This document shows positions 8,346 through 62,935 of a stretch of DNA of 64,000 nucleotides, one piece after another. The notes below the pieces were generated by a model. That model had not been told where the DNA came from and ran no database searches. It saw nothing but the letters and a program-made list of their open reading frames with translations. The DNA lies in assembly GCA_000091205.1 (NCBI GenBank), contig AP006494.2. One strand, 5' to 3'. This stretch comes from Cyanidioschyzon merolae. Its lineage: Eukaryota. Position 1 is the stretch's first letter. Every line of letters starts with the position of its first letter. Made by a program: the position numbers and the translations under genes.

Positions 8346-9012
8346 ACAGACGCACTGGCTGCGGCAGCGCGAAGCGATATGCTACGAGATAATCGTCATA
8401 TTGGCGACGCCCAGACGCAGTCTAAGTGTACCTGGTCTCGGAATAAACCGCGTTGCCGACGAGTTACTCAGATCTCAATAGAGTACTAGGCACTGGGTGC
8501 AGCATGGAGCACCAGCCTGGCAGACTTGTCCGGCTCGCAGGACATTCCGCCTGGAAGGTAAACGTTCGAAAATATGGAAACATTTTCCCCCTTTGAACGT
8601 TTACCGTAGAGGGGAAAGAACATTTTATCCACTTGGTAGTTAGTCCTTGGTTTATGATCTTTTTTGTACATGGTGCGCTCGATATGCGCACACCCATATC
8701 TGGCAGGCATGCGACCTAGCATGTGCATCTCGCCGCTGAGGGGAAACGCGAACCTGATCATGAGCGTGTTGCTCTGACTTACAAGATGTATTTGCGTTCA
8801 AGGCACAAGAGAGTATGTTTTTCTCAGTTCAATTGTGTGTCAGCTCTCAAGTGAGTGTATTCGAGCGATTTTTCGCGGGTTGTAGCAGAAGCTTTCAAAG
8901 TGCGTTGTTTTGAAAAATAGTCGAGATAAATCGGGAAAAATATGGTTGTAGAAGTGGAGGATCCTGGAGGGCCCCGTATCGCCGGCTGCCGCAAAAAAAA
9001 AACCGAAGAACA

Positions 9013-10986
9013 GTGCCAACCAAAGAGGAACAACACAGGACCAGGAAGCAAGGCGGCGAGGGCCGACACCAAAACCTGCAGGGAAAACGACAGTACGACG
9101 AGATGGAAGTGAAAGCCTGTCTTTTACGCTGCGTCAAGGATCCGTGCAGGGAAAAGTTGCAAGAGGGCATCAGAAACCGTGTCGATTCGTACTCCAGGAG
9201 TATTGTAAAGGCCTGTTCAGGAATGATGCATGTGGTGAAGGTGATGTGTCGCGACGTGACGGACATCCAAACCGTCGAGGTTCCGGACGAGATTTTCGGC
9301 AAGACCTTCATTCGTCACCTGATGGTTGGAACAGGGGAAACGTCGAGGAGAAATGAGCGAGTTCGTGCCCTCCACGAAAATTACATCAAATACCGCTCCA
9401 ACGGTACTCGATACACGGGAGACTCGCGTATTTACGAATACGGGGCGATCAAGTACCTCACGAACCTGAAGAACCACGTGACCATGAACCTCAAAGGCTT
9501 CATGATACGCTCCGTCTTTGCCCTCGACCTGGAGCTGTCTCGCATAGGGATACGGGCCATCATCGACGGCATCAAGAACGATAGTCGGAATGAACAGGAG
9601 ATCGAATTTGCCGACAAGAAGACATCAAGCAGAGGAAAGAATGAACCTTCTGGAATCCCTGCGGCTATTCAGGAGCACCGTGCAGACTTGGGGCTTGTCA
9701 ACCCCGCGGATAAAGTATCAGAGATGAAAAAGATGACGAAAGATTTTATCCCCGCGTCCAGCGCTATTCCGTGTTTTTGGAGCGAGAACTCGAACGCCAG
9801 GCGGAGATGGAGCTCACTAGGGGAATACGTGAAGATTCGGAGAAGCGGAAGGCTTTCGTAATGGGTAAGCGCTTCAACGTCATTCCATTATGCAACAGCA
9901 AGTAGCACTTTGTGCGAATCGACGCTAGCGTCCTTCATGGCATCACGGGGGAGATGTGTCCGGAGTTCAGTTTTTTCAGGAAGGAGTTCGCCGGCGAAAA
10001 CCCGGAATCGTACTGGAAGAGTATCTTCGATTTCAAATGTCAGAATACAAGCAAAGAAAGATGTATACGGGGAATATCGAAAGAGATGGGATTCTGATGA
10101 ATGTGCACTACGGGTGCTTGATGGCGGATCTTCCTATTCTGTCTTTGTCGGTGCCTTTGACGGAGCATGAGAAGGACAAGGAGGTCGGTCCACGACGCAG
10201 GAGGTGCAGGAGAACGACTTTGTCGTCGGCGTGTGATACCGGGAACACGAATATCGTGACCATCGCTGCACCCAATTTTGCGGAAGATGGCATCGACGGT
10301 AACTTACGTCAGAGAGACATGCGTCTTTTAAAGCTCTCGAGAGCGAGATATTACCGAGACTCGGGAAAAATGAATGCAAGGAAACAAATTGTGACGTGGA
10401 ATGCTGGAGTGAAAGAGCACCTGGAAGCGGTCAGCCAGGTGACTAGTCGTCGAGCGGACCGCTGAGCATTTCTGGAATTCATGAAAAGTTGCGTTGCTCA
10501 TCAAGAGGAGCTGTGGAAAGAGTACACCAAGCCCCGGTGGGTTCGTCAGCATATAACTTTTGTACTGTGGAAAACAACCTGCATTCGCGAACTTTCTTAA
10601 TCAGTTGAGCGCCCTCATAGAGGACAAGAGTCGAAGGCTTGTAGTAGCATACGTTGCAGGTCGCTGAGCCTCCAAAACCAGGGAGCATATCTGCTCCATC
10701 GACAAGAGCGTACACGTAGTGCGCACATCGTTCCGTTACAGTACCGACAGATGAGTTCTGAGCGTCCTACATACACCATGAGCTGGGATGTACACTTCAG
10801 AGGGTCGAGATGGCGAAAAGCCAGCGGAGTCTTGAGGATATAGAAAGGTACGGAGAGCTTGCAGAACAGGAAATTGCACAGAGGGCACGAGCACGAGGAC
10901 TTGTCGCACTGCTTCGTACCACTTGTGGCAAGAAACGCATGAAGTTCGTGAACCGTGACTTTAACGCCGTTATCAAGATCCGATGA
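9013..10986 (+). pseudogene. TnpB/Fanzor-like RuvC nuclease gene, disrupted. N-terminal ORF 9013-9861 (likely start MEVKA at 9103), middle ORF 9956-10465 with RuvC-I-like SSACDTGNTNIVTIA near 10229-10270, C-terminal ORF 10810-10986 ending KKRMKFVNRDFNAVIKIR-stop. Frame changes could be introns or frameshifts
   Basis: The N-terminus MEVKACLLRCVKDPCREKLQ...RVDSYSRSI mirrors the TnpB start pattern (M.KAYK.RLYP..EQ...RFVYN). ACDTGNTNIV matches GIDLGIKNxAT (RuvC-I). RDFNAVIKI matches (D/N)RDxNAAxNI (RuvC-III). An in-frame TGA lies 3 codons after the motif, where the 36-kb copy has Cys. Confidence 0.45.
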
Positions 10987-12130
10987 TTTGCGGCGCTGGA
11001 GAGGAGACCCGAGCAGCTGACGCCATCTAACTTTGTCGGGAAACCGCTCCGGGTCGAGATGAATAAGGAGAAAGTGAAGCCAGTAGTTGGCGACCGGTCG
11101 ACAAAGACTGGGAGCTGTCTCCTTATCGATGGATTGACATCCAGTCTATGGCGGGCGGCGCGCCGCTCGCCACTATTGGACCCCGCTTATGTAGCGTACG
11201 CCGCTCGGAAGGCATGTCGTTGTTACCGGTGCGACGGATGCGTTGATGCTGGCTCTGCTGGGGCAATGCAGCTGGTGCTTGAAGCACTGCGGGTGCGCTC
11301 GTTGATGCGCTGCTGCTTTGATCCTCGGGCGACTCGTCTCGACGGCTGCGTACGACCGGACGACGCTGATGCTGATGCTGATGCTGATGGCGTACGATCG
11401 CGAGCGAAACTGTTTCTATGTGCATAGTGAGGGCGTATTCGATGTCAGAAACAGACTGGGTCACGTTTCCGGTACACTGGTCATGCGGATCATCAGAATG
11501 CTGTTACCAGTGGCATTGGAAATGCGATGATGCGCTTGCATCCGCGTCTGAACACAATGTGGGCTTTCGCGAGCTCCCCCGGACTGCATGCGACGCGTGA
11601 GCACGCATCGCGCACCGATCGCCACAGCTGTTTGCGCGTTTGTGGAACAGCAGCTGCCTTGGCGCTCCGACTTGTCGCTGAAGCACCTCATTGCGATTCG
11701 GTGGCAACGCAGATCCATTGCAGGCGTCAGCATCCGTCCCTGGGCAATGTCCAGGTTGCAGGTACGCGATCCATGCTTCAGCAATATGCACAAAACATAA
11801 TGATAGCCTCGTGACGCTTGCAGAGCAAACGTCGTCCGAGTCCCTTGTTTGGGCTGATGCACATGAACCAGAGATCCCGGGTTGCGCGATGGACGCTGTT
11901 TTCTTGCACTGACGGCAACTTTCGGGAAATCGCCCTAGATCCGGGTACTCCCCAGTCCAGTAGGGCGCCGCAGCGTATCGAGCAGCGCACGCTCTAGGTG
12001 GACACCATGGCAATGTCCAAAATAATCCATTTTATACTGATTTACCTCCGGATCACTCGTGGACGGTACGTAGCGCCTGCCGCGATCCGGCCCGCAGCGC
12101 TTTGTCCATCCTGAACTGTTTCGTCCGCGA

Positions 12131-28360: not shown

Positions 28361-28599
28361 AGCGTGCTGCTATACAGAAATCTTTCCTACTGAATCCAGC
28401 CCTGCTGCCTGGTACCTCCTTGATCAGGCACCTTGCTTGTCCAGACCAGAGCCAGTATTGCACGTGGAGAAGCGCCGCTGCCTGCGCATGAGCGGCAGCG
28501 TGTCACCGGGATCAAGAGTCGCATTGGGGAAGTTGTCGTATTTCACTTTTGTACCAGCCCCGCTGCTGGGGTGTATAGAACGAGATCGAAATCACGATG

Positions 28600-29750
28600 C
28601 AAAGTATCGTAGAGATCGTGGATGAACTGCGTGTGGAGTACATGATCTTTACTGAACAGTACATGGAGGGCTGCATTCTTCCTCCAGATCAGTCATAGTA
28701 CAGTACGCACGTAGTTTGGGAACAATGAAAAAAAAGTAGATGCGCTCTGCGCCAAAACCGATATGCTCAAAGCGCCCATGCGGTCAATGGTAGAAAATGA
28801 CGTGTTGGTCATCTTACGGAAAGCAAAATGAGAAGATCATAGCCACCACGGGCGTCTCTGTTTCTCAATAGCTTGTTGATGTGCTCCTGAAATCACTGGG
28901 GTACAGTCACAAACAAATTCTAGGTCACGGACGGTTACGTTCCACCGATATTGCCCCTGGGGAGTTCCTGGAACGTCGCGGTCGCTATGAAGCAGAGGGA
29001 CGTTGGTTTTATTTTCCAGTAGATGAGACTTTCTTTGGACGAAACGGTCCGAGCGTATCTAAGCATTCGAGGTGAGAGGAGCCAACGGTACCGACCATGG
29101 AACTCGTAGAGAACGACGACATCGTCATCTATCCTAACTGGAGTGGATTCATTTTTGGTGGTCTTATTTCCGCTCGTAGAGAAGACGCATACAACAGCAT
29201 TCACTTCTGCGAACCATTACAGACATTTCTGCTAAGGTCTGGTGACTTCCCTCTATAGGACAATGTAGTATTTCACCGTTTAGCATATGTTCAAGCGTAT
29301 GCGGATTCTATCGGGATAGAGCGACTTTTCACTCTTCCGTATTCGCCATGGTTCAACCGCACCAAAGCATGGTCGAGATGGTGCGAAGCCTGCGGAGTGC
29401 TTCGGCGATACAAAAGCACGGAGAGCTGACACACCAGCATATGGCAGAGAGAGTTCGAGGAATCCTCGATATGATGAGTTCATTCAGAGGCAATAAACGC
29501 ATGGAATCGGTGAACCGAGACTCCGGTGCTGGTATTCATACCAGACCATGTGCGGTGCTCCAGAAAAGACCTGAGGAGCTGACGCAAGTCCGCTTGTGCG
29601 GCAGCCTCTCAGACCCGAAACACCCAAGGAGAAGCTGAGACCGGTGGCGCGGGGCCGGATAAAAAACGTCCGGAGGCACCTCTGGGTGGATATTAATGTA
29701 CCCGACATGGTAGGCAGACATTTTTTGTTTCATTCACGACGTATGCGTGT
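28600..29750 (+). mobile_element. Short degenerate copy of the TnpB/Fanzor-like element family; RuvC-III region decayed to NKRMESVNRDSGAGIHTRPCAV (29498-29563)
   Basis: DNA and peptide similarity to the 35.9-37.35 kb copy: the 5' segment ...ctgaacagtacatggagg..., the RGRYEAE...PVDETFFG block and the RuvC-III region. Ends about 0.5 kb upstream of the AGC kinase start. Confidence 0.4.
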
Positions 29751-33278: not shown

Positions 33279-33550
33279 TCGACTTGTGCAGCGCTCTCGA
33301 TCCAAACTTGTTTCTATGTTTTTAGCCCCGTGATGTAAACACACCTGGTAGCCCGTGACGCCATCTAAAACCGCTAGTAGAACACAGCGCAAGCTTTCGT
33401 TCTAGGGGGAATTCCAGGCACGCTGGTTTGTCGCAAGCGCTTGATGCGGCTTCGCTTTGTACGCAGCCGCCGGCTCAGAGCGTCTGCGTTACCGGAATGG
33501 AGAAGAGAACGCTATCGATGCCCAGAGGGAAGAGACTTTACTGTTTCCGT

Positions 33551-33764
33551 CGATGCTTCCGTTTTTACCAGCTCCGTGCCAAAAACTTCCCCAGAACAAT
33601 AAAGGTGTGATCACTCTGACGACTTGCTGAGAACCGCGCCCCTTGCAGGCGCTCGGCGATGCTTCCGTTTTTACCAGCTCCGTGCCAAAAACTTCCCCAG
33701 AACCATAAAGGTGTGATCACTCTGACGACTTGCTGAGAACCGCGCCCCTTGCAGGCGCTCGGCG
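33551..33764. repeat. Tandem duplication, about 107-bp unit x2, in the 3' flank of the AGC kinase gene
   Basis: gatgcttccgtttttaccagctccgtgccaaaaacttccccagaac[a/c]ataaaggtgtgatcactctgacgacttgctgagaaccgcgccccttgcaggcgctcggcg occurs twice head-to-tail with 1 mismatch. Confidence 0.85.
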
Positions 33765-35929
33765 CTGCGCTAGCTGTGCAGTCGCCGTCGACATACCGTA
33801 AGAGGAAGGCGTGGCCATGCCTACACGGGCTGCGCTTCCAGTCTCATCGCCGCGGTACCAGCATGACCTCGTCAACGGCACCGTTGCTACCGAGCGCGCT
33901 CAACGTCATCTCAGCGCTTTCTATGAGTGCACCAAGACAGAGCGGCAGCGATAGGCAATGAGACGGACCTTTCCATGAGGTACAGCACACGGTGCTGTGC
34001 TGCGCGTGGCCTGCATGCTCCCCAAAGACATAACTGGACAGAGGGTTTTTAGCGGCGCCAAGGTACAGCAAAGCACAGCAAAACGAGGCAAGGTACGGCT
34101 CTGTTGCAATGATGCCGAGCGAGCCGCGAAACGCGCTGGGAACGGTACAGTAGGCAAGCGGCGCGCGTGCTCCCCTATGCCCTAGTTATCGTAAAGTAGA
34201 ACACTGAAGTACTCGCTGTGTTCCCGCTTTTCAATTTTTCCAGAGTTGGTCTAGAAATACGGCATAGAAACTCGAAGTTCAGGAATGAATTCGAATGGAC
34301 GACTATGCAAATGTAGAATTCTTGAATGTTTTCTCGGAGTATTGTGTACGATGCTTTGCCACCGGAATTTGTTACGTAATCGTCATGATTCGCGTCGCAC
34401 TCGAACCCGGATTCGTAAAGTAACCGATATCGTTATGCGATGCTTGCGTACTAGCGTCGACTCATGTCCTGGCTGTAGGTGCAGCATGCCCAAATCAAGC
34501 ATTGTATGGAATTCGATCCTTCTGTTGCAAGGCCACTCGAGGCTGAAGCATCTTGCGCCGCCTAGTAGACGAGAAAAGCGAAAATGCTCGACTTCTTCTG
34601 TGAGCGACTTTATGACCTACTCATGCTGATAGCGTACTGAACGTCTCATGCCGAATACTCGATTCTGCTCGAAATACAAACGCTTTACACTGTCTGGTTA
34701 TTGATGAAATCGGAAATGAGCGCAGTATAACCATGCCTCTCACAGGGTATGTCGGTTGGGATCGTCTGTCTTCGGTTTGCACGGAAAATGGTCTTCGAAT
34801 TGCAGTTCAGTGAGCCTAGCGGTCAGTGGCTGTAGAGCGTGCATGTCGCTTCGCCTGAAACGAGCCTAAACGAATCGGAACTCCTCGACTTGATGTCTAA
34901 CCTGAATTTTCCTTACGATATGTGTTTAATCATGGATAACATCGTGTTCCATAAATCCTCTATCGAACGGAAATGCGCACACTTTCGCATATGCAGCGGA
35001 CCGGGCACCTGCCTTGGGGATCGCCTCGAAGAAGTCCTTGATCGTAGGACGCGGCACTCTGTGCGGATACAGAGGAAAACAGCGCTGGGAGCCTTGCGTT
35101 CACGTCAACCGCATGTACCGAGCGATGAAGCGCGCTGTCGTGCGACTCTGGGCGGCGCTCGGAGCCGCAGAAGGTCTAGTGCATCCCTGGGAGCACTTGA
35201 TCGCAGTCACTTGTCACCGCTGGAAAGCGCGCATGGAGACCGTCTGCATAGTAGGCGAAACAGGTGAACGAAACCTGGATCAGAACTTTTGCCTGTGCGA
35301 GGAACCCCCAGAGAACAACCGGAAGCGGCGGAAACGGGCTTTCATGCTGCGATCAGTATCCACGACTGATTCCAACAGAATTTGCGGGATAGGTAGGACC
35401 GGCGTATTCGAAGCGCGAGACAAGGGAGAGGAAAATGAACCGGTCGCAGAAAAAGCTTGCCATGGCTGGTGTTGATGACAATGCTGAGCGAGCCATACGT
35501 CAGTGTGTGTGTGTGTGCGCTCGTGCTATGTGAGAGCGCCCGTCCCACGGTATTCCGACATGAGTGTACGGCATGCAGGACGATACCGGAATGTTTTTTT
35601 CTGCGGTGAGAGGTCGACGCATCGATCCAGGGATCTGTAGCGAGTGCGATGCTCCTGCGTATCGATCGATGCAAACAGTGCGCGGGCCCAGTGCCCCCAG
35701 TGCTCTACGAACCATAGACCAGACTTCACTTTGTGAATAATGGTTTGTTCGCACGACCTTCCCAAGTATAGGTCCTACTGTGAGTGTCTAGAATGGCGCT
35801 AGTCGTAGCAGCAGCACTGCGGGCCGCTGAATGCAGACAGATCGGTTTCACGAGTCCCCGTCTGGCGCCCGCTCGAACGTCGATTCTCATCAGGGAAACG
35901 GATCACTACGGGCGCTATGAGATCGGCCT

Positions 35930-37350
35930 CAGAAGTTTTTGTCTTTCAACTCAGTTTCGTGGCAAGTCTGCTGCGGTGTGCAGTAGGCGGTTGAAATCTC
36001 CATGGAATGTACTGTACCGATCGTAGACGAATCGCCAATAGAATATGTTGTTTGCTGAACAGTGCACGGAGGGTTTCATTTCTCCATCGGATCAGTGATA
36101 CCACAATACCCATATGGTTGAGGAACACTGAACGAAGCAAGTACACGTGGTCTGCATTAAAACAACCGATATTCTCGAAGACTGCGACCTGTTAGTGGTA
36201 TAAACCAACCCACCGGACACGTTCCGGAAAGCGAAATGAACAATAGTAGGCAGCACGGGCGCCGCTTTTCTCAATTGCCTGTTCGCGTGATCCTGAAAAC
36301 ACTGGGATGCAGTCGGAATAAACTTCTGGTTCACGAACGGACATCTTCCACCAAAATCGGAACGAGAGCGTTCTCAGAATGTCGCGGTCGGTATGAAGCA
36401 GAGCATCATCGGTTTGTTTTACCGGTCGATGAGACTCGCTTCGGAAAAAGACGGTCCGAGCGTATATGGGTATTCGTGGCGGGGGCGCCCCCTTCTATGT
36501 ACAATCAAATTCGATGAGGACGATGACATCAACTGTCCTAGATGTAGTGGATTCTAGTGGCGGCCGCAGTTTCGCTCGTAGGCAAGGCTCACACAACAGC
36601 ATCTACATGCTTAAATCATTGAAGACATTTGCCTCTGACGTTTGATCACGTTCGTCCATTGGATATCGAGGCATCTCACTCTTCGCTTTACGTAACTGCA
36701 TTTGCTGCGCGTGCCGGAGGTAGAGCCGGTCTTTTCTTCCCTGTACGCCTAGTGCCTTAACTCCATCGACGGAGCGTTTCCATCGTGAAACGTAATGATC
36801 GCTCTAGTAGGCGAATCGTTGAAGCGTACATCACACGGTGACACGTTGACACATACCGTCTTTTACCAGCAAGTGCTTCTCCCTTTAGGATGGTTCTCAC
36901 CCAGGCACATAAATAAGTGCGTTCATTTTAGAAAAATAAGGGATGAGCTCGGACGTACATTTCAAAAGGTCGAGTTTGAGCAGAGGCAGTGGAGCGCTTC
37001 GGCTATAGAAAACTACGAAGCGCTGACCGAAGAGCAAATGGAAAGGAGGGCGAAAGCTCGTGGATTGCTTGCACCAGTGAGTACAACGAATGATGGCAAG
37101 AAACGTATGGAGTTCGTGAACCGAGACTTTAACGCCGCCATCAATATCAGGAGATGTGCCGTGGTGGAGCATAGACCTCCAGAGTGGACAAGAAGGTGTT
37201 TTGTTGGACAACCTCCCAAAGTCGAACTATATGAGAAAAAATTTGAAGCAGTAGAAGGTGGCCTGTCCCAAAAGACTGCAAGGCATCTGCACGTCAGTTG
37301 GCTACGTTTCCTCCAAGGCGCGTTGCCGCTACTACTGTGCACCGCTGGCG
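35930..37350 (+). mobile_element. Short copy of the TnpB/Fanzor-like element family with the best-preserved 3' module (ORF 36795-37436 carries intact RuvC-III KKRMEFVNRDFNAAINIRRCAV at 37122-37148); 5' part has an HTH-like ORF (36007-36195) and a middle ORF (36236-36517) in different frames
   Basis: RDFNAAINI exactly fits the TnpB/Fanzor RuvC-III consensus. The 5' end aligns with the 62.9 kb and 28.6 kb copies. The 3' end aligns with 10.8-11.2 kb of the long copy. It abuts the ChaN-like gene start. Confidence 0.45.
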
Positions 37351-37365
37351 ACGTTCGACTTTTGA

Positions 37366-38781
37366 ATGGCTATTGGCTGCATGGAGCAAACTCGAAAACG
37401 ACGGCGGACGGGATGTTTTCATACCCTCGGCTTTGACTGGAGACAAGCGCTCGCGACTGCCTTTATGCCACCAGAACCACGAGGCTTTTCCGCAGCCGCG
37501 TGCCAACGCGCAACACGTTGGCAGACGGTACAGCCTCGAGCTCGTCGACGGACGCTTTCAGAGCGTCGGCTACAAATGCTATACGTCAGCCGTCGAGAGT
37601 TTCTGTGGCAACTCGCAGCGGGCGCGGCAACGCTGGGCTTTCACAGTGTGAAAAAACCTGTGGCGCCAGCGGCTTCAAACTCGGCACCACCGGCGCCCGT
37701 GAATGGGCGCTTGGCACCACTGGGTGCTATCTTCGACACGATGATCGGCTCTTTTCTACCACCGCGACCTGAGCGACTCTTATCGAGGCGAATTCGGCAT
37801 AAAGGAGCACGCTCTGTTCTCTTGGTCGGGGAGACACACACGGACCGACAACACCATCGGGTGCAACTGGCGTTGCTGGACTCGTTTGTGAAGCATGTTC
37901 GAGGTCAGCGGAATGAGTCGATTGCAGGAGCTCCAATTGCGATCGGCATGGAGCATTTCTATCGGCAGCATCAAGTGCATCTGGATCGGTACATTGCGGG
38001 CAAGATTGAGCTACGACAGTTACTCGCTATTACTCGTTTCGAACTTACCTTTGGGTATAGCGCGCAACTTTGGCAGGATATTTTGGAGTATGCACGGGAA
38101 AACCGTATTCAGGTTGTTGGTCTCAATACTCCGTTCGAATTGGTGCAGCTGGTTGCCCACTACGGCCTGGATCACTTACCAGAACGTTTGTATGAAGTGC
38201 TTCCTCGCGATATGGATGTGCATGGTAATGCTGCACACCGTGAGCGTTTTATTCAGAGGATGAAAGCGTTGGGGGTGGAAGCGCATGGTCCACTCATTAA
38301 CGACGAGGCAGCACTGCAGCGAATGTATGAATCGCAGGTGCTCTGGGACGAATACATGAGCGAATCGGCGGCCTTGTGGCTAGAGCGGAACCCCCGCGGT
38401 CACTTGTGTATTTTTGCGGGTAATGGTCACGTCGAAGGCCGTGTTGGGATTCCAGACCGCCTGACTCGTCGTTCTGGGAGGCCGACCTTCACCGTCGTGC
38501 CGTATACGGTGCCGTTCCAATCAGACGGCTGGCCCGATATACCGCATCCCGGCAACAGAGATGTCGGAGATTGGCTCTGGTACCTGCCTGTAGGATCTGG
38601 GGGTGCCGAATCTGACGAATCGGACCCCAAGTCGCAGCGACAGCAACGGTTCGGGGAGCGTTTCGGCTATCGAATCGCACGCAGTACCGAGTCCGACATG
38701 AGACTGATGGGGCGAGGCGCAGCCAGAACCATTCAGAGAGGTACGCAGACGAAATCTGTGGACGAGCCGGACTGGGTATGA
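37366..38781 (+). CDS. ChaN/DUF399 (Tiki-superfamily, haem-binding-uptake-like) protein, 471 aa, with N-terminal R-rich extension followed by a twin-arginine motif; true start may be an internal Met (37465 or 37579)
   Basis: VLLVGETHTDRQHH and FAGNGHVEGRVGIP match the two GxxH signature blocks of the ChaN/Tiki fold. SRREFLWQLAAGAATLGF is a textbook Tat (S/T-R-R-x-F-L) signal. Confidence 0.55.
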   Translation: MAIGCMEQTRKRRRTGCFHTLGFDWRQALATAFMPPEPRGFSAAACQRATRWQTVQPRARRRTLSERRLQMLYVSRREFLWQLAAGAATLGFHSVKKPVAPAASNSAPPAPVNGRLAPLGAIFDTMIGSFLPPRPERLLSRRIRHKGARSVLLVGETHTDRQHHRVQLALLDSFVKHVRGQRNESIAGAPIAIGMEHFYRQHQVHLDRYIAGKIELRQLLAITRFELTFGYSAQLWQDILEYARENRIQVVGLNTPFELVQLVAHYGLDHLPERLYEVLPRDMDVHGNAAHRERFIQRMKALGVEAHGPLINDEAALQRMYESQVLWDEYMSESAALWLERNPRGHLCIFAGNGHVEGRVGIPDRLTRRSGRPTFTVVPYTVPFQSDGWPDIPHPGNRDVGDWLWYLPVGSGGAESDESDPKSQRQQRFGERFGYRIARSTESDMRLMGRGAARTIQRGTQTKSVDEPDWV

Positions 38782-39683
38782 ACGCGCGCGACTCGAGCTT
38801 TCGATAAGCGAAACAAGAGCAGCGCCACCAGACAGACTTGAGCAACTCGTCCTACCGGTTGTCAGCGTGGCACGGAGGACATGTTTATGGAGCCTTTCAC
38901 GGTGCATGCTAAGGAATCTAGCGAAACGTGACTAGCCTCTGGTAACTGCGGAGCGCTGGAGCGCCCAAGCGGTGTTGCGGCAGCGCAACAGCGCGCGCTT
39001 CGCACTGGATGAAACAGCTACGCGGGCGGCTGGATCGGTTCACCAGTCATACACACGCAAGACGATTGGAATCTTGGCTAGAAGCACGACGCTAGCGCAC
39101 ACATTGCAACGGATCAGGAGCTGTGCTTCATGACCCGTGATGGGTATGATTGATGACTCGAGCGGCCTGTGTAGACAGACATCCGACATAAGAGGGAACA
39201 AACGGGATACGAGGAAATCAAGTTCCAATGATTTGCAACTCCTATCCTGTGGAATCAGCTTTTCGCGCTCCTGCGTATACAGCCTGTCGATGCCCGCTCG
39301 GCGAAAAGGACCTGCAGAAAAGCAGCAGTGCGAAAGCGCGGGCGTGAAGCGTCACGACCTGGACATGACGCGCACGAATGACGACTTTGCTGGCAAGCCA
39401 GGCATGCTGGGTCCATCGCCTCTGATCCAGATCAGTCATCCATCGCGTTAAATATTTTTTTGTTGTTGTACGGGTAAATACATGATGCACAGTTACATGA
39501 TAATGCCGGCTTGCGTTCTTCTACATTCTGTGAAACAAACTGCACGGATTCCAGACGAGCGCAAGCGATGTCCATCCAGAGCCCAGCGGAGCGGATTGCA
39601 TCCTCCGGTGACGCGGACCAGTCTACGACGCAGTGGCGCTTGACGTGGCTCCATCGGCCTATCGAACATCTCCTGTAAGCAAT

Positions 39684-40736
39684 TCAGACTGGGAAGCCTA
39701 GCAGCGTCGCGACCTGAACTGCTAAATCACTGAACATGGTTTGCACGGCAGTGTCCTGCGCCATGCGACCTTGGTCGGCGGCCTCACAAAGTGTCTTGTT
39801 CAAAGGCAAGTGAGCGAGGACTTGTACGGAAGCGGCTTGTGCGAGCGCTGCGGCACGCTGTTCCGGCGCGCCGAAAACCTCCTCTTTATGCTGACACCGC
39901 GAGCACTCCACATATGCCATGTTCTCGACGATGCCGAGTACCGGTATCGAGAGGCGAGCAAGCGCCTCCAAGCCCCTGCGAACCTGAACCTCTACCAGCT
40001 GTGGCGGTGTGGTGACCAGAATCGCTCCCTGCACCTTGAGCTGTTGCGCCAAGGTCAGGAGAACGTCGCCGGTCCCCGGCGGGGTATCCACCACCAGAAT
40101 ATCAAGAGGCGCCCAGTCCACGTCGAAGAGCAGTTGCTGGACCGCTCTGGTGGCCACAGGTCCTCGCCATACCAACGCTTCGGTTGCTCGTTTCTGCAAA
40201 GCGGCCAGCCCGAATACTTTGAGCCCAGACTCGGTGACAAGAGGAACGAGTGGTCGACTCGTCTTGGGGTTGCGATCGCGGCTTGCTTGTGTGACGCTCG
40301 CCCGCAACAAGTGTAGAACCGATGGACCGTAAATGTCCGCGTCTAGGATCCCGCAACGTAGTCCAAGTCCCTGCTGCAACGCGCTTGCAAGACCCACTGC
40401 TACCGTAGACTTTCCCACACCGCCTTTGACGGCGCTCGAGAGCACAACCGCAGTCACGCCGGCAAGCACGCGTTTCTGGAACGGCCCGCTGACTGCAGCT
40501 CCCTGAGTCAAGTCTCGAAGCTGGAGAGGGGCGTGCCCGATCAAGCGTGAAAACACCGTGGTAGCTGGTGGCAGCCGCAGATATCGTGACAGCCAAGCCC
40601 GCTGCGTTGAGCAACCCCCGTACAAGTTCATGGGCTGGAGCGCTGGTACCCAGCAGGTGTTGCACGGGATACTGCGGACCCTGCTGGGCGCCCTGCTCGC
40701 GCCCTCAACCGCGCATAACCAGGCAGGGACGTGCAA
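39684..40736 (-). CDS. Mrp/NBP35-family P-loop Fe-S cluster carrier ATPase (Ind1/NUBPL- or HCF101-like), with N-terminal organellar presequence-like extension; likely start at internal Met
   Basis: Deviant Walker A SAVKGGVGKSTVAVGLASAL, GILDADIYGPS, and the C-terminal CxxC (VECSRCQHKEEVFG) that defines the Mrp/NBP35 family. Confidence 0.8.
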   Translation of the reverse strand: MHVPAWLCAVEGASRAPSRVRSIPCNTCWVPALQPMNLYGGCSTQRAWLSRYLRLPPATTVFSRLIGHAPLQLRDLTQGAAVSGPFQKRVLAGVTAVVLSSAVKGGVGKSTVAVGLASALQQGLGLRCGILDADIYGPSVLHLLRASVTQASRDRNPKTSRPLVPLVTESGLKVFGLAALQKRATEALVWRGPVATRAVQQLLFDVDWAPLDILVVDTPPGTGDVLLTLAQQLKVQGAILVTTPPQLVEVQVRRGLEALARLSIPVLGIVENMAYVECSRCQHKEEVFGAPEQRAAALAQAASVQVLAHLPLNKTLCEAADQGRMAQDTAVQTMFSDLAVQVATLLGFPV

Positions 40737-49993: not shown

Positions 49994-51927
49994 ATCTGGG
50001 ATTTTTTCTCAGATGTCAAAAAGTGCCCAGTGATCAGGGATCCCAGATTGCGGGATGGGTAGGTATTCGTTATCGAAAAAGCGTCCATGATGCTTCACGA
50101 TACCTCCAAGTTCCATTACTTGTGCTTCCGCTAGGATGCACTGGTCGTTTCGTACGTTCTATCGAGCGCTAAGTGTCTGCTTTGCTGCACCCTGCTGAAG
50201 CGTCTACACCGACAGAGCAGATGCTGCGCGGAGACAGCGCGGCGTTGCTGTACCACTGATGACTTCGGCTCGAGGCGCGGTCCATCTGATAAGGGATCAG
50301 GATTCATGATCATTCTGGGATCCAGCGATCTGCGTAGACAGACGCACTGGCTGCGGCAGCGCGAAGCGATATGCTACGAGATAATCGTCATATTGGCGAC
50401 GCCCAGACGCAGTCTAAGTGTACCTGGTCTCGGAATAAACCGCGTTGCCGACGAGTTACTCAGATCTCAATAGAGTACTAGGCACTGGGTGCAGCATGGA
50501 GCACCAGCCTGGCAGACTTGTCCGGCTCGCAGGACATTCCGCCTGGAAGGTAAACGTTCGAAATATGGAAACATTTCCCCCCTTTGAACGTTTACCGTAG
50601 AGGGGAAAGAACATTTTATCCAGTTGGTAGTTAGTCCTTGGTTTATGATCCGTTTTGTACATGGTGCGCTCGAGATGCGCACACCCATATCTGGCAGGCA
50701 TGCGACCTAGCATGTGCATCTCGCCGCTGAGGGGAAACGCGAACCTGATCATGAGCGTATTGCTCTGACTAACAAGATGTATTTGCGTTCAAGGCACAAG
50801 AGAGTATGTTTTTCTCAGTTCAATTGTGTGTCAGCTCTCAAGTGAGTGTATTCGAGCGATTTTTCGCGGGTTGTAGCAGAAGCTTTCAAAGTGCGTTGTT
50901 TTGAAAAATAGTCGAGATAAATCGGGAAAAATATGGTTGTAGAAGTGGAGGATCCTGGAGGGCCCCGTATCGCCGGCTGCCGCAAAAAAAAACCGAAGAA
51001 CAGTGCCAACCAAAGAGGAACAACACAGGACCAGGAAGCAAGGCGGCGAGGGCCGACACCAAAACCTGCAGGGAAAACGACAGTACGACGAGATGGAAGT
51101 GAAAGCCTGTCTTTTACGCTGCGTCAAGGATCCGTGCAGGGCAAAGTTGCAAGAGGGCATCAGAAACCGTGTCGATTCGTACTCCAGGAGTATTGGAAAG
51201 GCCTGTTCAGGAATGATGCATGTGGTGAAGGTGATGTGTCGCGACGTGACGGACATCCAAACCGTCGAGGTTCCGGACGAGATTTTCGGCAAGACCTTCA
51301 TTCGTCACCTGATGGTTGGAACAGGGGAAACGTCGAGGAGAAATGAGCGAGTTCGTGCCCTCCACGAAAATTACACCAAATACCGCTCCAACGATACTCG
51401 ATACACGGGAGACTCGCGTATTTACGAATACGGGGCGATCAAGTACCTCACGAACCTGAAGAACCACGTGACCATGAACCTCAAAGGCTTCATGATACGC
51501 TCCGTCTTTGCCCTCGACCCGGAGCTGTCTCGCATAGGGATACGGGCCATCATCGACGGCATCAAGAACGATAGTCGGAATGAACAGGAGATCGAATTTG
51601 CCGACAAGAAGACATCACGCAGAGGAAAGAATGAACCTTCTGGAATCCCTGCGGCTATTCAGGAGCACCGTGCAGACTCGGGGCTTGTCAACCCAGCGGA
51701 TAAAGTATCAGAGATGAAAAAGATGACGAAAGATTTTATCCCCGCGTCCAGCGCTATTCCGTGTTTTTGGAGCGAGAACTCGAACGCCAGGCGGAGATGG
51801 AGCTCACTAGGGGAATACGTGAAGATTCGGAGAAGCGGAAGGCTTTCGTAATGGGTAAGCGCTTCAACGTCATTCCATTATGCAACAGCAAGTAGCACTT
51901 TGTGCGAATCGACGCTAGCGTCCTTGA
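49994..51927 (+). mobile_element. Second, 3'-truncated copy of the long TnpB/Fanzor-like element: 5' region (one 96-bp unit, same hairpin) plus intact N-terminal ORF 51003-51851; lacks the RuvC-bearing part
   Basis: About 98% nucleotide identity to 7806-9936. The 282-aa ORF differs from its paralogue at 6 residues. Similarity stops abruptly at 51927. Confidence 0.6.
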
Positions 51928-61539: not shown

Positions 61540-62935
61540 TGGGTGCGTCGTCCTTCGCCCCAGGAACCGGCTCGGTACGCACGCTGTCGCCCGTTGCGAG
61601 CACAAGTGCAAACCCAGCTGCACAACGCGTATCACTGCGTTCTGCGTTTGCGCACACCGGGGATGCAGCGCAGCCGCTCGAGCACTCGGACGTACCACTG
61701 TGAGAGTCGTCTGCCTGGACGCAGTCGAAAGCGTCCCGTCGGATGAATATATGTTCTTGCTTGTCTCCCATCTTCTTCTTCGTGGTCGTATGCTCTTCTT
61801 TGCTCCATAATCGGAGACAAGAGGATTTTCCGGTTTTTCGGGCATCTGGGGGTGACGGCGCGCCAGGATCCTCTGCTTGCATGTCCATACCTATTACTTG
61901 GATTTTGTATTTCTTCAAAATAAACGCACTTGTTAATGCCCTTAGATAAGGACCTTTTCGGAGGCAGGAGGACCTGCGGAAGAAAGACGACTTGTGCTCG
62001 CGGTTTGTCCCCGCGGGCTGCACGCTTCAGCGATTCCTCCAGTGAAGCGATCATTATGTGTCACAACAGAGAACAAGCCTTCGATGGGGATGAACCACGG
62101 AGCGTACGGAGGAACCACAAGGAGGTCTAGCACCCAACAGAATCCTCAAAAGCTCGAATGCAAGGGAAACAGTGAGATGCCACGCTGTCCAATAGAGGAA
62201 CGTCGCCAGACGTCAGGGGTAAAGTCGTCAATCCTTTGATAAACTGGGTGCTATTATGTGAGCCTTCTCCACTGGGGAAACTGATGTCGCCACTTGAATC
62301 CACTGCAGCTAGAGCAGATGATGATGTCGTCGTTCTCATCGGGTTCGACTGTGCATACGACGGGCTCCCTCTCCACGAATACCCATATACGCTCCCACGT
62401 TTCGTCCGAAGAAAGTCCTATCAACAGAAAAAAGAAACCGACGATCCTGTGCTTCTCACAGATCGCGACGCTCGATAAACCCTCTCGTTGGGATTTCGGC
62501 AGCAGATAGCCGAGTGTGAACTAGGACTCTCTTCTTGCGACTGTGCCCCTGTGCGTTTCGTAGGACATGAACTAGCCGTAGAGAAACAGAGATTCCGGTG
62601 GTGGCTGCAATCATCGCTTTTATTTTCCGCAAGGTGAACAAAGAGTCGGTTTTGTACCACTGGCCGCAAACAGTGTTTAAGAATATCGGATTCTAACGCG
62701 GACCGCATACACTCCTCTCTTTCAGCGTTCCGCAACCATTTGAAGACTGTGGTATGACTGACCTGAAGGAGGAATGCAGTATTCCTTGCACTGTTCAGTA
62801 AACAATAGTTCTTATAGACGATTCGTCTACGATCTATACAATACATTGCATTGTGATTTCGACCGCCTACGATACACCGCTACGAGGAGGGCACGGTCGA
62901 GTGAAACAAACCTGAGTCAAAAGAATATATAGGTT
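61540..62935 (-). mobile_element. Short copy of the TnpB/Fanzor-like element family in inverted orientation (HTH-like ORF 62421-62846, MIASLEESLKR ORF 61632-62054); RuvC-III region decayed; 3' end abuts the prefoldin-4 start
   Basis: The 5' end ...ggtttgtttcactcgaccgtg...gcggtgtatcgtaggcggtcgaaat... (reverse complement) aligns with 35.93-36.0 kb. The ORFs MYCIDRRRIVYKNYCLLNSAR / MIASLEESLKRAARGD parallel MYCTDRRRIANRICCLLNSAR / MIALVGESLKRTSHGD. Confidence 0.4.

Follow-up and report, generated by a model that had tools for sequence, protein, structure and literature searches.

The founding member of the Pfam family PF04187 (Cofac_haem_bdg/ChaN/DUF399) is ChaN of Campylobacter jejuni (Cj0177; PDB 2G5G), a bacterial lipoprotein that, according to its depositors, binds two cofacial haems. 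In eukaryotes, the only DUF399 proteins discussed in the literature that we found are RETICULATA-RELATED 5 and 6 of Arabidopsis (RER5/RER6; AT2G40400 and AT3G56140), which combine DUF3411 with DUF399 and are reported to be thylakoid- or lumen-associated (PMC12114778). Substrates of the plastid twin-arginine translocation (Tat) pathway such as PsbP, PsbQ and Hcf136 carry, in this order, a transit peptide, an S/T-R-R-x-F-L motif, a weakly hydrophobic h-region, a c-region with basic residues and an AxA site. Here we analyse a stretch of 64,000 nucleotides from the red alga Cyanidioschyzon merolae (contig AP006494.2), referred to as the window, in which an open reading frame (ORF) at positions 37366-38781 of the plus strand encodes a ChaN-like protein with the same order of N-terminal elements as these Tat substrates. 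We consider it likely that this is a nuclear gene for a protein that would be addressed to the thylakoid lumen by a transit peptide followed by a Tat signal. The localisation is a prediction, in which sequence and comparison reveal the signal and we infer the transport steps.

The ORF starts with an ATG, directly 5' of which stands an in-frame TGA, and encodes a protein of 471 amino acids that matches PF04187 at residues 149-366 (E=7.2e-45; 154 bits against a gathering threshold of 27.7), the match spanning profile positions 8-213 of 213. Both the ChaN-like ORF and the arginine pair with its hydrophobic core, which the original prediction had read from the letters alone, are thus present as described. 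Beyond PF04187, no Pfam domain was found in the protein at E<=0.01, and DUF3411 was not found. RER5 and RER6 are fusions of about 745 amino acids with a DUF3411 membrane domain, whereas the C. merolae protein matches PF04187 alone and, having no DUF3411, is not a member of the RER family. Since neither RER5 nor RER6 appeared among the best 150 matches of a representative search, or in word-indexed searches, they are the more distant relatives. A further profile search, aimed at plant and cyanobacterial homologues, yielded nearly the set of sequences already found. A further 'DUF399' match in the literature, Borrelia BB0562, was rejected, as it is actually DUF3996. At 100% identity, the C. merolae protein corresponds to XP_005536857.1/BAM80821.1 of strain 10D (471 amino acids, 'hypothetical protein, conserved'), and therefore the host is a plastid-bearing red alga, as had been supposed from the sequence. 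The official C. merolae annotation is likewise the long ORF of 471 codons, and no mention of XP_005536857.1 was found in the literature searched. The gene was therefore annotated previously and left uncharacterised; what is new here is its predicted membership in the plastid Tat substrates and the ChaN/Tiki proteins.

The candidate Tat signal follows an N-terminal leader of 70 residues and reads SRREFLWQLAAGAATLGFHSVKKPVAPA, in which a twin-arginine motif is followed by a weak hydrophobic core, a c-region with basic residues and an AxA site; ASNS comes after APA, and cleavage is predicted after APA. Its central part, SRREFLWQLAAGAATLGFHS, occupies residues 75-94 (nucleotides 37588-37647) and is preceded by Met71. 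S-R-R-E-F-L-W fits the Tat consensus S/T-R-R-x-F-L-K at six of seven positions, and the h-region FLWQLAAGAATLGF is uncharged, rich in Ala and Gly and about 14 residues long, with HSVKK next to it and A-P-A at residues 100-102. In an AlphaFold2 model a helix at residues 76-88 corresponds to the h-region. We searched for a Tat-like pattern, [STN]RRx[FLIVM][LIVMFW] plus 16 uncharged residues, and found it in 225 of 200,000 composition-preserving shuffles of the protein (0.11%); among the window's 226 stop-to-stop frames with 100 or more amino acids, the ChaN-like frame alone contains it. Among seven close variants the Tat segment carries no substitutions. The motif thus appears to go beyond chance, and for this its conservation is a stronger argument than either the shuffles or the profile TIGR01409. 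The algal protein has another passenger domain than PsbP, PsbQ and Hcf136, and its dependence on Tat is predicted. No lipobox Cys follows the h-region, and therefore the protein is not a lipoprotein of the bacterial type.

Conservation of this segment was followed through the orthologues. An RR pair stands at the same position, with an uncharged stretch next to it, in every named red-algal orthologue (TRRE in Cyanidiococcus and Cyanidium, TRRD in Porphyridium purpureum, NRRT in P. aerugineum, SRRQ in Pyropia and SRRS in Timspurckia), and the position is also kept in two further cyanidialean lineages, in Heterosigma and in Prymnesium. Across 44 aligned orthologues 'RRxxL' is the sole majority-conserved motif of the presequence, and outside the Cyanidiales most orthologues have a clear AxA after the h-region (ANA|D, AWA|D, ALA|A, AVA|A). 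Red-algal orthologues derived from transcripts (MMETSP) encode a leader 5' of the RR with a Phe near the N-terminus (MKSEASIPFAFVAL; MSCTFIQNL), and such a Phe is typical of rhodophyte transit peptides. In many orthologues from complex-plastid algae (ochrophytes and a haptophyte) a hydrophobic endoplasmic reticulum (ER) signal peptide is added, often with Phe behind it (ALA|F, ASS|F, VNG|F, LG|F, TTA|F). In complex-plastid algae this pairing of an ER signal peptide with Phe marks proteins for import into the plastid, which argues for the plastid rather than the mitochondrion as the destination of the family. The kept RR, the ER signal with Phe and the open frame upstream of the signal, described next, all support the bipartite presequence for the thylakoid lumen that had been proposed.

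The leader, MAIGCMEQTRKRRR...RARRRTLSERRLQ (residues 1-70), consists of 20% Arg, 12.9% Ala, 12.9% Ser plus Thr and 5.7% Asp plus Glu, and has a net charge of +11. It had been described beforehand as a roughly 70-residue R/S/T-rich extension, of which the length and the richness in Arg hold and the richness in Ser and Thr does not; 'R/A-rich, acid-poor' fits better. In the AlphaFold2 model it is disordered (predicted local distance difference test score, pLDDT, below 50), and residues 1-73 are disordered overall. In four cyanidialean lineages the frame 5' of the RR is open for 74, 157, 88 and 210 codons, with an in-frame Met in each, and the 70-codon extension is intact in seven environmental or strain variants close to C. 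merolae. In one of these variants codon 1 is ACG, and Met6 may therefore be a start as well. The seven variants carry one to three substitutions each in the leader, all of them non-synonymous, and the same holds for nearly all of their few changes in the mature part. Leaders of different species are too diverged for alignment at the nucleotide level; at the protein level those of Cyanidium and C. merolae show weak homology (PPEPRGF/PPTRPGF and RWQT/GWQT), and an 'AF' motif located 40-47 residues before the RR is shared among the leaders. We infer that residues 1-70 act as a transit peptide.

Translation could also start only at Met71, leaving the upstream 70 codons untranslated and giving a signal-peptide-like N-terminus that would lead to the ER/secretory route or leave the protein in the cytosol. 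A Met lies 4-6 residues before the RR in all four cyanidialean lineages (MLYVSRRE, MHWSTRRE, MVWSTRRE and MSEDRHTRRE; window 37576-37587 and sequences L001, L015 and L017), with a comparable MQISRRD in MMETSP1475; metagenome gene callers give models of 401, 370 and 375 amino acids beginning there, and a Fanzor-type repeat ends just 60-90 nucleotides or so 5' of ATG 37366. The short models, however, stem from gene calling of the prokaryotic style, whereas curated annotations use the long forms (471 amino acids in C. merolae, 449 in Cyanidiococcus and 462 in Cyanidium). A start at Met71 alone is further opposed by the open upstream frames with their in-frame Met codons, both in the four lineages and in the seven close variants, by the residual protein-level similarity among leaders and by the leaders encoded in transcript-derived orthologues, and we regard it as very unlikely. 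The conserved Met itself could be left over from the start codon of a bacterial ancestor, or it could offer an alternative site of initiation.

To place the family, word-indexed and exhaustive profile searches were carried out, which returned 6,423 matches, mostly bacterial-type, in two tiers. The first comprises about 60 higher-scoring sequences (E below ~1e-60) whose match to the profile runs from the RR region through to the C-terminus; the nameable ones carry annotations as hypothetical or ChaN-domain proteins and all come from plastid-bearing algae, either red algae (Cyanidiococcus yangmingshanensis, Cyanidium caldarium, Porphyridium purpureum, P. aerugineum, Pyropia yezoensis and Timspurckia) or algae with red-derived plastids (Ectocarpus, Undaria, Discosporangium, Heterosigma akashiwo and Prymnesium parvum, plus MMETSP transcripts). 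The second tier consists of thousands of bacterial ChaN proteins that match the core alone (profile positions ~88-310, against 20-343 for the eukaryotic sequences); the eukaryotic members thus share N- and C-terminal segments absent from the bacterial matches. In a scan of GTDB genomes, limited by its search patterns, the nearest named bacteria were 30-37% identical (Myxococcales, Planctomycetota, Nitrospirae and Proteobacteria), and within the same limit no cyanobacterial homologue was found. For the phylogeny of the ChaN domain, which the original prediction had proposed as a check, a neighbour-joining tree groups the eukaryotic sequences (algal wherever they can be named) together, with Planctomycetota-like sequences nearest, and the Cyanidiales are recovered in 200 of 200 bootstrap replicates, yet the single eukaryotic clade reaches just 106 of 200 (53%) and the red-algal subclade 17 of 200. 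Because the bootstrap for the eukaryotic clade is weak, the tree does not settle the bacterial donor lineage.

These data also bear on the alternative first offered beside the lumenal one, a recent bacterial transfer whose product still bears a bacterial Tat export signal. The ChaN family is indeed overwhelmingly bacterial, as the 6,423 mostly bacterial-type matches show, and its nearest named bacterial relatives are 30-37% identical to the algal protein. However, contigs of Cyanidiococcus, of a Cyanidium-like type and of other Cyanidiales keep the gene in conserved synteny, in the order saccharopine dehydrogenase-like gene, protein kinase, ChaN, NUBPL-type ATPase and giant kinase; orthologues of the gene occur throughout the red algae and the red-plastid algae, ochrophytes and a haptophyte among them, and the terminal segments described above are lacking in the bacterial matches. 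Moreover, the strict Tat consensus was present in the first 60 residues of none of 100 full-length bacterial-type homologues, 37 of which carry a lipobox-like motif; the Tat signal therefore looks like an algal addition rather than a bacterial relic. Synteny, wide algal distribution and Tat-less bacterial relatives together dispose of a recent acquisition, which we rejected as extremely unlikely.

Next to its targeting signals, the protein was compared with known structures. In the AlphaFold2 model, built from an alignment of 33 sequences, the core at residues 120-410 has a pLDDT above 90 and residues 412-471 are disordered. A Foldseek search against the PDB gave ChaN 2G5G as the best match (template modelling score, TM, 0.80, target-normalised; E=3e-12), followed by BcR135/EreC, RRSP and HopBA1, and a PDB sequence-profile search also matched 2g5g (E=1.6e-9). 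C. jejuni ChaN and the algal protein belong to the same Pfam family, and their GExH/E/GxxH residues are aligned at an identity of about 13% over the structural alignment; the algal protein differs in having a putative transit peptide and a predicted Tat signal instead of a lipoprotein signal, and extra conserved segments at the N-terminal (IFDTxxGSFLPP) and C-terminal (FTVVP...DWxWY) sides. BcR135, EreC (erythromycin-esterase family), RRSP and HopBA1 together represent the Tiki superfamily, whose active enzymes are defined by a 2His/2Glu motif (PMC6254334). This pattern (GExH ... E ... GxxH) is formed in the algal protein by E156, H158, E196 and H355, each of them invariant or at least 90% conserved. 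Fold and motif are shared with the Tiki hydrolases (Tiki metalloprotease, EreA/EreC/BcR135 and the RRSP endopeptidase), which are farther away than ChaN (TM 0.25-0.36) and act on unrelated substrates. Given the ChaN fold and the 2His/2Glu residues, the protein appears equipped to hydrolyse a substrate or to bind a ligand or metal, and its most likely lumenal role would be that of a metal-dependent hydrolase (peptidase or esterase) or of a binder of haem or tetrapyrroles. In the literature searched, we found no activity for any PF04187 member.

Several observations weigh against a Tat-addressed lumenal protein. In the signal, TIGR01409 (TAT_signal_seq) scores 14.8 bits at residues 74-93, just under its cut-off of 16.7 bits, and is matched by just 6 of 44 orthologues at E<=1; many complex-plastid members, brown algae included, have a single Arg (TRQGF in Ectocarpus); and A-P-A lies 10 residues past the h-region, while the conserved F/Y-H-S is not a classic AxA. 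In the leader, the N-terminal Phe of other red algae is missing from C. merolae, the richness in Arg is as in mitochondrial presequences, the Met before the RR is kept in the Cyanidiales and taken as the start by prokaryote-style gene callers, and the ratio of non-synonymous to synonymous substitution rates (dN/dS) gave no support either way, variation between strains being too low and divergence between species too high. To these we add the 53% bootstrap of the eukaryotic clade and the proposed function, which is drawn wholly from family resemblance.

Because of the distant A-P-A and the non-AxA F/Y-H-S, the signal might stay attached, in which case the uncleaved Tat-like segment would anchor the ChaN domain on the lumenal side of the thylakoid membrane, as with the Tat signal of the Rieske protein. 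Such an anchor would agree with the cyanidialean c-region (F/Y-H-S/P-V/L-K/R), which has no classic AxA directly after the h-region, and with the bacterial relatives, which are membrane-tethered lipoproteins, so that tethering may matter for function. Nevertheless, we consider it unlikely, as the h-region is short (~14 residues), weakly hydrophobic and rich in Ala and Gly, and a clear AxA is found in most orthologues outside the Cyanidiales, with A-P-A at residues 100-102 in C. merolae itself. The composition of the leader raises a second alternative, in which it would be a mitochondrial matrix presequence and the RR with its hydrophobic segment a sorting signal for the intermembrane space or a mitochondrial Tat signal. 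With its 20% Arg, net charge of +11 and few acidic residues the leader also fits mitochondrial presequences, red-algal mitochondrial genomes encode tatC, and, as the adjacent NUBPL-like gene shows, genes for proteins of either organelle are found close by. We find this destination quite unlikely, since the ochrophyte and haptophyte orthologues begin with an ER signal peptide and then Phe, the complex-plastid route, the N-termini of other red-algal orthologues contain the Phe typical of rhodophyte transit peptides, and all nameable eukaryotic homologues sampled come from plastid-bearing algae.

For the lumenal protein that we favour, the following route can be proposed. The precursor would be made in the cytosol from ATG 37366 or from Met6, and its Arg-rich, acid-poor leader of about 70 residues would cross the plastid envelope and be removed in the stroma. 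This cleavage would expose SRREFLW, the weakly hydrophobic core of 14 residues, the Lys-Lys c-region and A-P-A, and the twin-arginine signal would then deliver the ChaN-type domain, already folded, to the Tat (delta-pH) translocase of the thylakoid. The signal would probably be cut after Ala102, and a mature protein of about 370 residues, with a ChaN/Tiki alpha/beta fold and the full set of 2His/2Glu residues, would act in the lumen. As to its origin, the gene probably goes back to a ChaN-type gene of bacteria, the relatives of which rely on Sec or lipoprotein signals, the transit peptide and the Tat signal having presumably been gained in the algal lineage, in a family common to red algae and algae with red-derived plastids. 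The positions of these elements, and of other features of the window, are collected in Table 1.

Table 1. Features of the ChaN-like gene and of its surroundings (positions in the window)
Feature	Position	Strand	Remarks
Leader, aa 1-70, a putative transit peptide for passage across the plastid envelope into the stroma	37366..37575	+	Composition, disorder, conserved open frame
Predicted Tat-type thylakoid-transfer signal, aa 71-102 (MLYV-SRREFLW-QLAAGAATLGF-HSVKKPVAPA)	37576..37671	+	Sequence, TIGR01409, conservation; RR codons 37591-37596
Predicted mature protein, aa 103-471	37672..38778	+	Folded ChaN/Tiki-superfamily core ~aa 120-410 (nt 37723-38595); Pfam domain nt 37810-38463
GETH, Glu156 and His158 (first Glu/His of 2His/2Glu)	37831..37839	+	Invariant in alignment A1; at least 90% in A2 and A3
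Glu196 (second Glu, in IGMEHFYRQHQ)	37951..37953	+	Invariant in alignments A1 and A2
His355 (GNGH; second His)	38428..38430	+	Invariant in A1 and A2; GSYH of ChaN 2G5G at the aligned position
C-terminal tail, aa 412-471	38599..38778	+	Lineage-specific; pLDDT <50 over most; not alignable outside Cyanidiales
Stop codon	38779..38781	+	End of ChaN-like ORF
NUBPL/Ind1-type P-loop NTPase	39684-40736	-	PF10609, E=2e-70, domain from aa 94
Spacing from kinase to ChaN ATG	33279-37365		~4.1 kb
Degenerate repeat 5' of the ChaN-like gene	35968-37304	+	
ORF in this repeat, 213 aa	36795-37436		Bears FVNRDFNAAINIR
Further degenerate Fanzor-type copy	10771-11136	+	
Further degenerate Fanzor-type copy	28563-29620	+	
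Further degenerate Fanzor-type copy	61797-62880	-	
1.2-kb duplicated segment, copy 1	8701-9935	+	282-aa ORF at 9013-9861
1.2-kb duplicated segment, copy 2	50692-51925	+	282-aa ORF at 51003-51851
115-bp unit, two overlapping direct copies	33548-33662, 33654-33768		Plus strand; just 3' of the kinase gene
ORF, 595 aa	52488-54275	+	No Pfam match at E<=1e-4
ORF, 415 aa	4843-6090	-	No Pfam match at E<=1e-4

Ordinary eukaryotic nuclear genes (WD40, cyclin, CTLH, GDI and kinases) make up the remaining large ORFs of the window. The neighbour on the 3' side, described in the original prediction as Mrp-like with a presequence that hinted at a plastid, belongs to the NUBPL/Ind1 type of P-loop NTPases; its ORF starts at TTG, and the first ATG leaves a presequence of about 58 residues. 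The NUBPL/Ind1 type is usually mitochondrial and serves in the assembly of complex I, and therefore the leader of this neighbour is not evidence for a plastid.

On the 5' side, the spacing between the kinase gene and the ChaN ATG compares with only ~0.5-0.65 kb in Cyanidiococcus and other Cyanidiales, and the extra DNA, especially the part listed in Table 1, is a degenerate repeat with an ORF of 213 codons. The motif FVNRDFNAAINIR in this ORF resembles the RuvC-III motif of TnpB/Fanzor proteins. The 213-residue protein had no Pfam, NCBIfam or PDB match, its identification resting on the repeat family and the literature, where CMe-1A is described as a Fanzor1 element of C. merolae with about 150 copies of ~3 kb (PMC3627910). 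The repeat is most likely a CMe-1A copy. Its detectable similarity stops 60-90 nucleotides before the ChaN start codon, and the insertion is present in six of the six environmental variants examined. Contig L002 (window 37315-38853) is ambiguous as a mark of transcript ends; its 5' end is also the repeat edge, and it is ambiguous because a repeat edge would break a genomic assembly. The three further degenerate Fanzor-type copies, at 64-72% nucleotide identity, had no Pfam or NCBIfam match; two of them keep decayed NRDxxAxxxI motifs, one with an in-frame stop. The 1.2-kb duplicated segment has 99.1% identity between its copies, and the ORFs in them, identical at 275 of 282 residues, had no family match; the segment may be the TE-N2_CMe/CMe-1A 5' module described in PMC3627910. 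The two copies of the 115-bp unit are 97% identical.

The finding leaves current views of plastid targeting unchanged and is sensible rather than startling. The lumen proteomes of red algae and of ecologically dominant red-plastid algae (haptophytes and ochrophytes, the latter including brown algae and raphidophytes) are poorly charted, and a conserved Tat-addressed ChaN/Tiki-type protein would add to them a candidate lumenal hydrolase or haem-handling factor. Tentatively, and with considerable doubt on our side, the protein might be the founding member of an unrecognised family of lumen enzymes in red and red-plastid algae, with an origin in bacteria other than cyanobacteria, a re-addressing from Sec or lipoprotein signals to Tat, and a lumenal role in haem handling or proteolysis. 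If so, folding and cofactor loading would take place in the stroma before entry into the lumen, and the protein would be metal- or haem-dependent, acting in the supply or salvage of haem for cytochromes c6, c550 and f, or in specific lumenal proteolysis. C. merolae permits targeted gene replacement, so that direct testing is possible in this alga. The gene would also offer a clean example of a bacterial Sec/lipoprotein family that was re-addressed with a transit peptide and a Tat signal after entering an alga.

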